Source: Candidatus Nomurabacteria bacterium RIFCSPLOWO2_01_FULL_42_17 (lineage in GTDB: Bacteria; Patescibacteriota; Minisyncoccia; Phycocordibacterales; UBA9973). From it: a stretch of 43,700 nucleotides of DNA. The position numbers and the translations under genes were made by a program. The notes under the pieces are model-generated. The model did no database searches. It saw nothing but the letters and a program-made list of their open reading frames with translations, and was not told the origin of the DNA. Below are positions 5,953-31,276 of this stretch, in pieces. The stretch is from the NCBI GenBank assembly GCA_001785985.1, contig MFVE01000006.1, positions 33,049 to 76,748 of the forward strand. Reading direction: 5' to 3'. Position 1 is the stretch's first letter; each line of letters starts with the position of its first letter.

Positions 5953-6873
5953 ATGGCCGGAACAAAAGAAATTAAAAGAAGAATAAAGAGTGTGAAAAAC
6001 ACGAAGAAGATCACCAAGGCGATGGAGCTGGTGGCGGCGAGCAAAATGAAACGTGCTGTTTCATCTACGCTCGCTTCACGTTTATATGCGGAATATTCCT
6101 GGGAGATTTTGACTTCAATCGCGCAAAATGTAGAAGAGCTAGACCACCCACTTTTCACAGAAAGAAAGAATGTAGACGTCGGACGTCTACAAAAGGTTTT
6201 AATTATTTTGATTACATCCAACAGAGGTCTTTGTGGAGCTTATAATGCGCAGGTCATCAAAAAAACAATTTCATTATTAAAAAACAAAGATGTGAGTATT
6301 GATGCTGTAACAATAGGTAAAAAAGGGGATGTGGCAATGCGCAGATTGGGTGTAGATGTCATCGCCTCTTTTACAGATTTAAGCGATAAAATTTCTTTGT
6401 CCGAGATTGTTCCCATTGCCAAGCTCGCTATAGATGAATACATTTCAGAAAAATATGATAAAGTTCTGGTGGCGTATACGGATTTCATTTCAGCTCTTAC
6501 CCAAAGAGCAAATATTAAACAAATACTGCCAGTGAGTAAAGCGGATTTGAAAGAAGTGATTGAATCATTAGAACAAATCAAACATCACGAAGGAAAAGAA
6601 ATGGATAATAAAAAGATTGATTATTTATTTGAAGGAGATAAAGTAAAATTGATCAGTTCGCTCGCAGAGAAGTTGACTAGGATGCAAATATATCAGATGC
6701 TTTTAGAATCAAATGCCAGTGAGCAGTCCAGTCGAATGGTCGCGATGAAAAATGCCAGTGATGCTTCGGGAGAAATGATTGATGATTTGACTTTGATGTT
6801 CAATAAAGCGAGACAGGCGAATATTACCAGAGAAATTTCCGAGATCAGTGCCGGAATGGCATCCGTAAGCTGA
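5953..6873 (+). CDS. atpG: ATP synthase F1 subunit gamma
   Basis: KITKAMELVAASK, SNRGLCGAYN, RMVAMKNAS, RQANITREISEI. Confidence 0.98.
   Translation: MAGTKEIKRRIKSVKNTKKITKAMELVAASKMKRAVSSTLASRLYAEYSWEILTSIAQNVEELDHPLFTERKNVDVGRLQKVLIILITSNRGLCGAYNAQVIKKTISLLKNKDVSIDAVTIGKKGDVAMRRLGVDVIASFTDLSDKISLSEIVPIAKLAIDEYISEKYDKVLVAYTDFISALTQRANIKQILPVSKADLKEVIESLEQIKHHEGKEMDNKKIDYLFEGDKVKLISSLAEKLTRMQIYQMLLESNASEQSSRMVAMKNASDASGEMIDDLTLMFNKARQANITREISEISAGMASVS
6171..6191. repeat. In-frame palindrome in atpG
   Basis: tgtagacgtc-g-gacgtctaca, encoding part of NVDVGRLQ. Confidence 0.8.
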
Positions 6874-6937
6874 CGCTTACGGAATATTTAAATATTTAAA
6901 AATTTAAATAAAAAATTATCAATAAATTATAAAAATT

Positions 6938-8320
6938 ATGCAACAAGGTACAATCAAAAAAATAATCGGGCCGGTCGTGGATGTTGATTTTGGCGAAAGC
7001 TTGCCGGATATTTTTTCTGCATTATCGGTTATGAATGGCCAGGGAGACAAACAGAAGAAAATAATTCTTGAGACAGAACAGCATTTAGGCGGTGGCGTAG
7101 TGCGAGCGATTGCCATGGATACGACAGACGGTCTTTCTCGCGGAATGGAAGTAATAAATACCGGCGCGCCTATCTCTGTGCCGGTGGGCACTCCGACTCT
7201 CGGAAGAATTTTTAACGTTTTGGGCGAGGCAATTGATGACTTGTCCGCAGTAGCAGAAGCGAAGGCGGGTGGAAAAGTTAATCGATTACCAATTCATCGC
7301 AAAGCTCCTGAATATTTAAAACAAGCAACCAAGGTTGAGATTTTGGAAACTGGCATCAAAGTTATCGATCTCATTTGTCCGGTATTAAAAGGAGGAAAGG
7401 TGGGACTCTTTGGGGGCGCAGGTGTGGGCAAGACTGTCGTCATTCAAGAATTAATTCATAATATTGCATCAAATCACGGAGGATATTCTGTTTTTGCGGG
7501 AGTCGGCGAGCGTACTCGTGAAGGTAATGATCTCTATCACGAAATGAAAGAGTCTGGTGTGTTGCCAAAAGTTGCCATGGTCTTTGGACAAATGAATGAA
7601 CCGCCGGGTGCTCGTATGCGTGTGGCGCTCTCTGGTCTGACGATGGCTGAACATTTTCGTGATGCTGAAGGTAAAGATGTTCTATTTTTTATCGATAACA
7701 TTTTTCGATTCACCCAAGCAGGTTCTGAAGTGTCTGCGCTTCTCGGACGTATTCCTTCGGCGGTTGGTTACCAGCCGACTCTCGCAACCGAGATGGGAAA
7801 TATGCAGGAGAGAATTACTTCTACAGATAAAGGTTCTGTCACTTCTGTGCAAGCGGTGTATGTGCCGGCAGATGACTTGACGGATCCAGCTCCAGCGACA
7901 ACCTTTGCGCACTTGGACTCGACTGTGGTGCTCAATCGTTCACTTTCGGAGATCGGTATTTACCCGGCCGTTGATCCGCTTGATTCTTCTTCGACTATTC
8001 TCGATCCGAATATTGTGGGACAGGAACATTACAATGTTTCTCGCGAAGTTCAACGTGTGCTCCAGCGTTATAAAGATTTGCAAGATATTATTGCAATCTT
8101 GGGTATGGAAGAATTATCCGAAGCTGATAAAGAGCTCGTGGGCAGGGCGCGAAAAATTCAGAAATTCCTATCCCAGCCATTTTTCGTGGCTGAAGTTTTC
8201 ACTGGGACAAAAGGACAATACGTTCCACTTACTGAGACTATCCGTTCATTCAAAGAAATTCTGGAAGGCAAGCACGACGATAAGGCAGAAAGTGAGTTTT
8301 ATATGAAAGGCGCACTTTAG
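6938..8320 (+). CDS. atpD: ATP synthase F1 subunit beta
   Basis: [38 protein letters not shown]. Confidence 0.99.
7240..7270 (+). repeat. In-frame GC-clamped imperfect hairpin in atpD
   Basis: cttgtccgc-agtagcagaagcgaag-gcgggt, encoding [10 protein letters not shown] between GEAID and LPIHRKAP. Confidence 0.65.
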
Positions 8321-29023: not shown

Positions 29024-29038
29024 AAGCGGATTATATCA

Positions 29039-31276
29039 CTATTTCATTAACTTATGAGGATTATGCATTGGGCAAGCTTTATTACTGCATCTCTCCGGTA
29101 TGGTTTTAGTGCCTTCCATCATCAGACTTCCGCATTCTTTACATATCGCGCCAGTAGGCTTTGCCTTGATTGCAAATTTACATTTTGGATAATTAGAACA
29201 AGAATAGAAAATACCGAATCGTCCGCGACGCTCGCTGATGTCTCCAGTCTTGCACGTGGGGCACAGTACGCCAGTTTTTTTCTTTGCTTCATCGGCGGCG
29301 TCTGATTTTATAAATTTACATTTTGGATAACGGGAACAGGAAATAAAGGTGCCAGTACCGTCACGTCTTTGTCTGATAACAAGCTTACCATCACCCCCTT
29401 TTCTTTCTTTCTGACCTTCTTTTTTGCCACATTCTGGACACATCTCACCAGTTTCTTCTGGACCTTTTAGTTCTGTGCCGTCTAGCATCAAGGCCCCATC
29501 ACAATCTGGATATTTAGAGCAAGAATAAAATTTGCCTCCGCGAGAAAGTTTGATAATCATCGAACTGCCGCATTTGGGACATTTTATATTCTCTGGCGCA
29601 TCGCCTAAGTTTGTGGCTTTTTCCAATTTTTCTTTTGATTTTACGTCTTTCAAAAAAGGTCCGTAGAAATCTCTGAGTGTCTTTTCATATTCGCGTTCGC
29701 CGCGGGAAATCTCGTCGAGCTCGTCTTCCATTTCTGCGGTGAAACTGTCAGAAATATAATTCATGAAATGTTTTTCCAGGAAATCAGAAACGACTTCTCC
29801 CACATCCGTCGGGAAAAGAGTTTTGCCTTCTTTGTTCACATAACCCCTCTCTTCGATCGTTCTCATGATCGAAGCATAAGTCGAAGGCCGGCCAATGTCT
29901 CTCGTTTCTAGTTCTTTTATCAGGCCAGCTTCGCTATAACGGCCGGGTGGTTCGGTAAATTTTTCTTCACTATTTATATCAAGCAATTTTAATTCATCTC
30001 CAGCTTTGCATACGGGCAGTTCTACATCATCTCCACGCGCATCACTGTCTACTTTGAGCCAGCCGGGGAAAAGCAGGCGAGATCCATTAGCGGAAAAATA
30101 GGGGAGATCTTCATGGCTTTTTATAATTGCAGAAATCTTTGTTTTCAATAATTTTGCGTCGGTCATTTGCGAGGATACGGCGCGCTCCCAGATCAATCGA
30201 TAAAGCCTGTCTTGATCCTCAGTGCCGGCAATCATTTTCTCTATATGGGTGGGGCGGATAGCCTCGTGCGCTTCTTGGGCATTTTTTGATTTTGTTTTAT
30301 AAGTTCTCTCCTCTGCATATTCTGCGCCATATTTATTTTTAACGAAAGAAATAATTTGGGCTTGGGCAACAAGAGACAGATTTGTACTATCTGTTCGCAT
30401 ATAAGTGATGTGTCCAGCCTCGTAAAGTTTTTGCGCGATTTGCATCGTGCGCGAAGGGGAATAGCCTAGGCGGGAACTTGCCGTCTGTTGAAGCGTAGAG
30501 GTGGTAAATGGCGCTCGGGGAGATCTCTTTTGTTCTGATTCTTTTACTTCATCTACAAGCCAGGTGCCCTTTTTGCCTTCTGTTAATATTTTCTCGACGA
30601 GCTTGGGGTCGCGCGGTTCCTCGCTGCATTCGAGGGTAAGCTTGTCGCTCTTTTGTGTTTCAAAAAGTCCCACAATTTTCCAATATTTTTCAGGAACGAA
30701 GGCGCGGATTTCTCGTTCACGTTCCATTATTATGCGCAGTGCAGGGGATTGTACCCGGCCAGCCGAAAGTCCGTAGCGAACTTTTTTCCAGATAAGTCCA
30801 GAGAGATCATAGCCGACCAGACGGTCTAAGACTCTGCGCGCTTCTTGAGCTTGGCGCAAATGCGTATCGATTTTGCGTGGTGTCTTCAGTGCCTCTTCGA
30901 CAGCTTCTTTGGTGATCTCATGGAAAGTCACTCGCGCTATCGGCGCTTTTATTTTCTTGTCTTCTTTTAAAAGTGTCTCAATGTGCCAGGCGATAGCTTC
31001 ACCCTCACGATCAGGGTCAGTCGCTAAGATAATCTCACTCGCTTTTTCTGCCAAACTCTGTAATTCGCGGACCACTTTCTCTTTACCTTTTGAAATTTCA
31101 TAACGCGGCACAAAGCCGGCCTCGATATCTATCGCTGTCTTGTTTGATTTTGGAAGATCTCGAATATGCCCGACAGACGCGCGCACAGTAAATTGATCTC
31201 GACCCGCCTCTCCGGCGGATAAATATTTCTCAATAGTTTTTGCTTTTGATGGTGATTCAACAATTAATAATTTCAT
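29039..31276 (-). CDS. topA: DNA topoisomerase I with C4 zinc ribbons
   Basis: IVESPSKAKTI, ATDPDREGE, SAGRVQS, ITYMRTD, AHEAIRPT, IGRPSTY. Confidence 0.98.
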   Translation of the reverse strand: MKLLIVESPSKAKTIEKYLSAGEAGRDQFTVRASVGHIRDLPKSNKTAIDIEAGFVPRYEISKGKEKVVRELQSLAEKASEIILATDPDREGEAIAWHIETLLKEDKKIKAPIARVTFHEITKEAVEEALKTPRKIDTHLRQAQEARRVLDRLVGYDLSGLIWKKVRYGLSAGRVQSPALRIIMEREREIRAFVPEKYWKIVGLFETQKSDKLTLECSEEPRDPKLVEKILTEGKKGTWLVDEVKESEQKRSPRAPFTTSTLQQTASSRLGYSPSRTMQIAQKLYEAGHITYMRTDSTNLSLVAQAQIISFVKNKYGAEYAEERTYKTKSKNAQEAHEAIRPTHIEKMIAGTEDQDRLYRLIWERAVSSQMTDAKLLKTKISAIIKSHEDLPYFSANGSRLLFPGWLKVDSDARGDDVELPVCKAGDELKLLDINSEEKFTEPPGRYSEAGLIKELETRDIGRPSTYASIMRTIEERGYVNKEGKTLFPTDVGEVVSDFLEKHFMNYISDSFTAEMEDELDEISRGEREYEKTLRDFYGPFLKDVKSKEKLEKATNLGDAPENIKCPKCGSSMIIKLSRGGKFYSCSKYPDCDGALMLDGTELKGPEETGEMCPECGKKEGQKERKGGDGKLVIRQRRDGTGTFISCSRYPKCKFIKSDAADEAKKKTGVLCPTCKTGDISERRGRFGIFYSCSNYPKCKFAIKAKPTGAICKECGSLMMEGTKTIPERCSNKACPMHNPHKLMK
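31202..31223 (-). repeat. In-frame hairpin in topA
   Basis: Minus strand: ttatccgcc-ggaga-ggcgggt, encoding LSAGEAG between KYL and FTVRASVGH. Confidence 0.65.

Follow-up and report, generated by a model that had tools for sequence, protein, structure and literature searches.

In-frame palindromes in core genes of the window

The window analyzed here is a 43,700-nucleotide stretch of Candidatus Nomurabacteria bacterium RIFCSPLOWO2_01_FULL_42_17 (contig C6, positions 33049 to 76748), and our subject is a set of short palindromes that lie within its genes. The genome comprises 669,556 bp in 9 contigs, with ~40% GC and a completeness of 95%. It is a metagenome-assembled genome (MAG) of a groundwater bacterium of the Patescibacteria, or candidate phyla radiation (CPR), and is of the Nomurabacteria/Paceibacteria type. 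A preliminary description of the window had listed eight hairpins in seven named genes. All eight were found where that description had placed them, and Pfam analysis confirmed the genes as atpG, atpD, atpC, an RsmI-type methylase gene (rsmI), a holB-like gene encoding a DNA_pol3_delta2 protein, miaA and topA (Table 1).

The strength of each hairpin was assessed by comparing the RNA fold of the site with the folds of 200 dinucleotide shuffles. Six of the eight hairpins are genuine and above chance, the support for atpC being moderate; the topA site is weak, and the atpD site folded at the level expected by chance. Base pairing in the holB-like hairpin reaches 17 pairs. A further hairpin, missed in the preliminary description, was found in a thiamine pyrophosphate (TPP)-enzyme gene, where a 12-bp stem stands between runs of A and T. 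The division of the hairpins into a class with perfect short arms and a GC-clamped class was also borne out; the former are perfect short repetitive extragenic palindrome (REP)-like sequences and the latter is a 40-nt GC-clamped family, designated F10.

Further copies elsewhere in the genome were found for five sites (atpG, atpC, rsmI site 2, the holB-like gene and miaA), and the rsmI site 1, atpD and topA palindromes have no second copy in the genome. Family F6, represented in the holB-like gene, has 5 genome copies, including an inverted intergenic doublet at C8:83307-83352. The TPP-enzyme hairpin (F9) recurs almost unchanged between genes at C6:15781 and C8:94991. The second copy of the miaA palindrome (F11) is imperfect and also intergenic (at ~C5:220712-220733).

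Table 1. Palindromic sites in the window, with the strength of each fold relative to dinucleotide-shuffled sequence
Gene or site	Family	Position	Strand	Structure	Fold z	Shuffles as good (of 200)
atpG	F3 (REP)	6171..6191	+	10-bp perfect arms, 1-nt center; in frame	-4.5	0
atpD		7244..7269	+	Weak 4-5-bp clamp within 6-aa lineage-specific insertion	-0.84	35
atpC	F10	8747..8786	+	40-nt GC-clamped imperfect hairpin; in frame	-2.5	2
rsmI site 1		11192..11209	+	8-bp-arm palindrome; single copy in genome	-3.4	0
rsmI site 2	F1 (REP)	11357..11379	+	9-bp arms, 5-nt loop; in frame	-5.2	0
holB-like gene	F6 (REP)	14188..14226 (core 14197-14217)	+	Copy-specific extended arms; in frame	-6.3	0
TPP-enzyme gene	F9	21530..21556	+	12-bp arms, terminator-like; 91 nt before stop codon	-5.9	
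miaA	F11	24661..24694	-	12-bp perfect arms, 10-nt loop	-4.0	0
topA		31202..31220	-	5-bp GC stem, 7 bp if wobble pairs are counted; within 6-7-aa insertion	-2.4	5

Y1 transposase genes flanked by the same palindromes

The preliminary description had pointed to Y1 enzymes, such as the REP-associated tyrosine transposases (RAYTs), as possible partners of the palindromes. Five open reading frames (ORFs) of the genome (R1 to R5) match Pfam Y1_Tnp (PF01797), at 32.9 to 37.2 bits against a cut-off of 23, and each has its own flanking palindrome. Two of the five are flanked by exact copies of palindromes from the window. The atpG 21-mer recurs at C8:28102-28122 and C8:28851-28871, where it brackets a 235-aa Y1 ORF (C8:28127-28834). 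The two copies are in inverted orientation, as their central base is complementary, and a partial copy lies in frame within the Y1 gene itself (C8:28638-28655). A second Y1 gene likewise contains an in-frame copy of its own flanking palindrome (C8:63226-63244). 23-mers identical to rsmI site 2 were found at C2:44067, 44766 and 45532; these alternate in orientation and bracket a 231-aa Y1 gene (C2:44082-44777) together with an adjoining membrane-protein ORF. A further F1 copy, in ligA, encodes the same eight residues as the copy in rsmI.

R1, R3 and R4 carry the same palindrome on both sides, with loops that are complementary between the sides; the upstream copy of R2 is perfect, and the one at its 3' end is a 96% match; and R5 has copies within and around the gene. 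The Y1-linked families have 5 (F1), 8 (F2), 4 (F3) and 3 (F5) copies in the genome, and F4 has only its two flanking copies.

Alignment of 28 homologues revealed that both histidines of the HUH motif and one tyrosine are invariant. A PDB sequence search with one Y1 protein gave no match, and a profile built from the five Y1 sequences gave weak matches only (ISDra2 TnpA; E, ~0.04), so a fold search was needed. The AlphaFold model of a C8 Y1 protein (R3) is confident over its N-terminal 150 residues. Its top Foldseek match is the Escherichia coli RAYT with its REP hairpin (4er8_A; E, 7.9e-5), and ranks 2 to 24 are IS608 and ISDra2 TnpA. Three traits of a REPtron, namely, a Y1 HUH enzyme with an IS200-like fold, inverted flanking palindromes and dispersed copies, are present.

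The arrangement is not confined to this genome. Relatives of the Y1 proteins were found at no fewer than 568 loci (one genome per species) in MAGs of Nomurabacteria, Paceibacteria and other Patescibacteria. Eighty loci were retained for a count of the layout, of which 61 had enough flank on both sides; a locus was scored if stems of at least 6 bp with an inner hexamer common to both sides were present. The same palindrome was found upstream and downstream of the Y1 gene at 42 of the 61 loci, all in other CPR MAGs. With shuffled flanks, 19 rounds gave 0/61 and one round gave 2/61. Within the genus, 25 genomes, this one among them, were searched for PF01797; 23 had matches, and the number per genome ranged from 0 to 11.

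Most palindromes coincide with indels relative to orthologues

Twenty syntenic loci covering atpG to holB and 17 covering topA to miaA, from genomes of the same genus and the same order, were aligned with the window. The proposal that the hairpins coincide with indels relative to orthologues held for six of the eight sites (atpC, atpD, both rsmI sites, atpG and topA) but failed for miaA. The atpC insertion is clean, amounts to exactly 13 aa and is missing in all 15 aligned relatives. The 6-aa atpD insertion is missing in 20/20 relatives. At rsmI site 1 the protein is 7 aa longer than in 17 of 18 relatives, the segment being common only to the closest one (L006), and the site 2 insert is missing in the closest relatives. 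The atpG palindrome occupies a variable loop that is 2 to 7 aa longer than in most of the 20 relatives. The topA insert is missing in 11/17 relatives, the three closest among them; in the other six, an insert of 7 aa occupies this position, and that of one (L035) has a 7-bp stem. At miaA ~11 codons have been replaced, and the length is the same in 16/16 relatives, i.e., there is no insertion. Protein alignment also showed no change in length between the ligA F1 copy and relatives without F1.

The same loops carry palindromes in other species. The hypervariable loop of the holB-like protein has related palindromes in at least seven relatives, and rsmI loop 2 has stems of 8 to 21 bp, some of them inverted doublets, in seven other genomes; in both loops the palindrome differs between species. 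The atpD loop of one relative (L008) holds a palindrome with a 14-bp stem, and the atpG loop of another (L020) holds a tandem pair. Copies of one family may also differ in the length of their arms, which extend past the common core by copy-specific complementary bases, from 9 to 19 bp in F1 (9 bp in rsmI versus 19 bp in ligA) and from 12 to 18 bp in F2.

A survey of nine genes considered insertions of 4 to 30 aa that were present in no more than 40% of the aligned rows. Perfect stems of at least 9 bp were found in 16 of 81 such lineage-restricted insertions, compared with 7 of 1,620 length-matched controls; with stems of at least 7 bp the figures were 27/81 and 51/1,620. These ratios are descriptive and are not P values, since the related genomes are not independent.

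Intragenic palindromes exceed shuffled controls

Stems were counted as maximal perfect stems with a loop of 0 to 12 nt. ORFs were crude calls (longest, nonoverlapping, at least 80 aa), and the 656 ORFs obtained cover 90% of the genome. Controls were generated by synonymous-codon shuffling, which retains each protein and its codon usage. In this test, which the preliminary description had proposed, intragenic palindromes outnumbered those in codon-shuffled sequence, both in the window and genome-wide. ORF interiors of the window contain 4 stems of at least 9 bp whose arms have at least 30% GC, with 0.82 expected, and only 1 of 200 shuffles reached 4. Genome-wide, stems of 10, 11 and at least 12 bp numbered 28, 11 and 12 versus approximately 9, 2 and 1 (20 shuffles), and codon permutation (20 shuffles) gave similar expected counts. 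A stricter count took in only ORF interiors, from the 521 ORFs that are 150 aa or longer, and only arms with at least 30% GC. It gave 51 stems of at least 9 bp versus 17.7 +/- 4.4 and 25 stems of at least 10 bp versus 5.1 +/- 2.8; none of 30 shuffles reached either value.

Distribution of copies and location in protein structure

A census with 11 seed families identified 55 copies in the genome. Thirty-seven are in ORFs, and 31 of these occupy the interior of their host, the hosts being 28 ORFs that are 150 aa or longer. Given the crude ORF calls, some copies near the ends of ORFs may be extragenic, and these were counted apart as edge or short cases. The density outside ORFs is ~4-fold that inside (0.262 versus 0.062 per kb), with only ~10% of the genome lying outside ORFs. 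Hosts named by Pfam include Mur ligase, LepA, Fmt, RecG, Fpg, UvrC, KsgA, RNase H, Def, a PurL-like protein, RpoB, PNPase, ligA and two of the Y1 genes. One family (F7) is asymmetric, with a conserved C-rich 5' tail joined to a 9- to 11-bp hairpin. It occurs at C6:19587-19620 and at ~6 other loci, none of them in the window, and is mostly in ORFs (LepA, RecG, KsgA, the PurL-like protein and ligA) and mostly in one frame.

Mapping onto predicted structure, proposed in the preliminary description, placed both rsmI sites in low-confidence coil loops. The AlphaFold model of RsmI has a mean predicted local distance difference test (pLDDT) score of 77. Both palindrome-encoded peptides lie in coil between secondary-structure elements, and the pLDDT falls below 50 at residues 59 to 67 (site 1) and 114 to 117 (site 2).

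The GC-clamped family F10

F10, the family of the atpC site, has 12 near-full-length copies in the genome and 18 matches under a looser search. Nine copies are in ORFs, all in the sense orientation and in one reading frame, and encode a recurring 13-residue peptide. Four of the six frames of the seed are open (read by eye), so the restriction to a single sense frame does not result from stop codons alone. The hosts named by Pfam are RpoB, PNPase, ScpB, a pseudouridine synthase and AtpC; the others are a 398-aa ORF without a Pfam match, two very large ORFs and one short ORF. Two of the three intergenic copies are sense relative to the upstream gene. Within the genus, F10 gave 21 matches in one genome (G007) and 6 to 8 in four genomes; 13 of 24 relatives, including the closest, have none. 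A transposase flanking F10 was sought in this genome and none was found, and no target-site duplication was seen at the clean atpC insertion.

Two intergenic F10 copies, at C5:72528 and C5:75506, are 2.9 kb apart and bracket a helicase-like gene and a helix-turn-helix (HTH) gene. Near-repeats of the 18 nt that end the upstream RecG gene stand on either side of each copy.

Other features of the window

Between atpC and rsmI (8916-10897), the window contains a 226-aa ORF without a Pfam match and a 340-aa sigma-54-interaction AAA+ activator with an HTH domain. Neither had a tblastn match in the 20 syntenic loci, where atpC adjoins rsmI, and the pair looks like a lineage-specific insertion. A 443-aa ORF on the minus strand (25073-26404) is ~27% identical to its best tblastn match in 15 of 16 relatives and 70% identical in the remaining one (L031), within the syntenic loci; gene replacement or paralogy may explain this. 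The MreB ORF (12202-13434) was called from a TTG start, and its N-terminal ~70 aa are poorly or not conserved in relatives. Translation probably begins further downstream, unless the extension is lineage specific. Between two genes on the minus strand is a terminator-like perfect inverted repeat (38635-38676; 18 bp, with a spacer of 6 nt) that was not linked to any family.

Discussion

We consider it likely that the hairpins are copies of several REP-like families of mobile palindrome, situated in frame in the surface loops of housekeeping proteins. The preliminary description had proposed a mechanism that seeds diverse micro-hairpins into tolerant loops of core genes. This is supported by the existence of families, by the REPtron layout of the Y1 flanks, by the coincidence with indels, by the loop location of the rsmI sites and by the excess over shuffled sequence. 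We infer, in addition, mobilization of the elements by the Y1 enzymes and a neutral, passenger status for the copies. Each transposase would recognize and cut its cognate hairpin on single-stranded DNA and would move or copy it to new sites. As ~90% of the genome is coding, most landing sites would fall within genes, and selection would leave as survivors only those copies that are in frame, free of stop codons and in tolerant loops. F10 may behave likewise, in this genome without a flanking transposase.

Several points weigh against this reading. Copy number is low (2 to 12 per family), and with 37 of 55 copies in ORFs the combination of high abundance and extragenic location typical of REPs is lacking. 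The fold at atpD is within the range of chance. Two of the five Y1 proteins were compared with NCBIfam; their best and only match, REP_Tyr_transpos (NF047646), scored 41.1 and 28.1 bits, far below its cut-off of 80. The C-terminal half of these ~230-aa proteins is poorly modelled, and the Foldseek TM-score for R3 is moderate (0.54 by target length). With sequences read by eye, F3 appears to be the only family with a GTAG tag; it carries both GTAG and CGTC in its arm, and the other families start with neither. Six families, including F10, F6, F9 and F11 of the window, have no flanking Y1 gene in the genome, and a relative (G013) with 7 F10 matches has no PF01797 match. Lastly, the miaA element and the ligA F1 copy cause no change in length, which simple insertion does not explain, and the extension of arms requires an additional process.

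If hairpin-templated strand switching acted during replication, it would yield both same-length replacements and growth of the arms. A more far-reaching, and in our view doubtful, possibility is that REP-type elements constitute a standing "loop-writing" process in the genus. The cores would be recopied time and again into the same loops of essential proteins, those that tolerate them, since there is almost no intergenic room, and at times a templated same-length replacement would be followed by arm growth. F10 would then be a coding-compatible module and might act as an mRNA hairpin.

An alternative to mobile REP-like families is that the palindromes arose in place, without transposition. In quasipalindrome correction, intrastrand template switching at replication perfects imperfect inverted repeats in coding DNA and leaves the length unchanged. 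This would fit the 12-bp perfect palindrome in miaA, the F1 copy in ligA and arms that outgrow the family core with complementary bases peculiar to each copy. Such a mechanism cannot account for letter-identical cores of 21 to 23 nt at unlinked loci, which also flank Y1 genes, or for the clean 39-nt insertion in atpC of an element from a family with at least 12 copies. We regard an origin in place as unlikely, and template switching is most likely a secondary process that acts on inserted cores.

It is also conceivable, although somewhat less probable still, that the hairpins are selected mRNA structures with a role in processing, stability or translation pausing, and that they spread by function and not by selfish mobility. 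F10 is sense in all nine host ORFs and also in two of three intergenic cases, judged by the upstream gene, and some pairs of its stem (with the fold read by eye) are G-U, so that the opposite strand would have mismatches there. F9 resembles an intrinsic terminator and has intergenic twins, and the holB loop retains a hairpin shape across species despite differing arm sequences. Set against this, the host genes are functionally unrelated, presence is patchy even between close relatives, perfect palindromes are symmetric and carry no strand information, and the REPtron link indicates mobility.

The least probable explanation, to which we give very little credence, is that the hairpins reflect chance arising from codon usage or amino acid sequence, or errors of assembly: atpD is within the range of its shuffles, topA and atpC are only moderately outside theirs, and a good many of the AT-rich stems listed genome-wide look random, but both synonymous and codon-permutation shuffles fall short of the observed counts, and cores within families are identical. 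Chance origin was ruled out for six of the eight sites by fold, codon and synonymous shuffles; it stands for atpD and possibly for topA. An assembly artefact was likewise ruled out, as the same kind of in-frame palindrome occurs in the same loops in at least 20 independent related assemblies.

REP-like mobile families in protein loops thus remain the reading that we favor. In-frame intragenic REPs and Rickettsia palindromic elements (RPEs) are already known, and the elements described here belong to an already known type of selfish DNA, found in a new bacterial group. What is added is the CPR host group, the presence of five REPtrons and many low-copy families in 0.67 Mb, a majority of copies within genes, the reuse of the same protein loops across the genus and the sense-only, single-frame behavior of F10. 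Core proteins of CPR bacteria are known for odd insertions, and a concrete source can now be named for part of them: about one-fifth of the sampled lineage-restricted insertions (nine genes) are perfect palindromes of the same types as those beside Y1 genes. The genome also illustrates the fate of a REP/RAYT system where only ~10% of the sequence is noncoding, with most surviving copies in frame in genes, such as those for RpoB, PNPase, ligA and ATP synthase subunits. In practical terms, CPR MAGs with such elements are prone to confusion in orthologue alignments, phylogenomic markers and gene calling, and the elements could serve as strain markers. The same-length replacements and arm growth hint at a step in REP biology outside textbook cut-and-paste. 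If loop writing did operate, REP/RAYT systems would be a major source of the indels and peptide variation found in CPR core proteins, in addition to being extragenic passengers.

Comparison with known systems

REPs, REPINs (inverted REP doublets), RAYTs and REPtrons are established (Nunvar 2010, PMC2817692; Bertels and Rainey 2011, PMC3116915); according to the former, classical REPs often exceed 100 copies. As in those systems, a Y1 HUH gene is bracketed by an inverted short palindrome that is also found elsewhere in the genome, each transposase gene has a palindrome type of its own, and REPIN-like inverted doublets occur (e.g., C8:83307-83352). Unlike those systems, the families here have 2 to 12 copies and not hundreds, the 37 intragenic copies of 55 are not outside genes, and the ~230-aa proteins fall under the NCBIfam RAYT cut-off, with five such genes in a 0.67-Mb CPR genome.

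The closest precedent for location is the report of GTAG/CGTC REPs in frame in known proteins, notably those of replication and repair (Di Nocera et al. 2013, PMC3733652). In the portion of that report used here, the hosts include DNA ligase, UvrA/B and DnaE, the REPs are single or dimers, the genomes include Opitutus terrae, Rickettsia conorii, Thauera and others, and Rickettsia RPEs are cited. In-frame inserts in proteins, repeat-specific REPtrons and several families per genome are common to those REPs and to ours. In that same portion, by contrast, intragenic copies are a minority of large families, and no CPR genome is named. Our search of the literature on REP/RAYT or in-frame palindromes in CPR bacteria, which did not extend to the supplementary tables of PMC3733652, found no report.

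The Y1 proteins share their fold and HUH/Tyr chemistry with the TnpA proteins of IS200/IS605 elements (IS608 and ISDra2), and by analogy the hairpins may, like the ends of those elements, be recognized on single-stranded DNA. They differ in that the five loci are flanked by one inverted palindrome and not by distinct left and right ends and that the gene is single copy per type, with no adjoining tnpB at the five loci. Miniature inverted-repeat transposable elements, which carry the terminal inverted repeats of a parent insertion sequence, measure 70 to 300 bp and generate target-site duplications, were considered and rejected; the elements here are single hairpins of 17 to 40 nt, without duplication at atpC.

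RPEs are similar in behavior only: they too are in-frame palindromic inserts in functional proteins of a small genome that are missing in orthologues, and a consistent frame gives a recurring peptide, as in F10. RPEs are reportedly longer, about 100 to 150 nt for RPE-1, and to our knowledge they have no dedicated transposase. The elements described here, in contrast, measure 17 to 40 nt, and several have a cognate Y1 gene.

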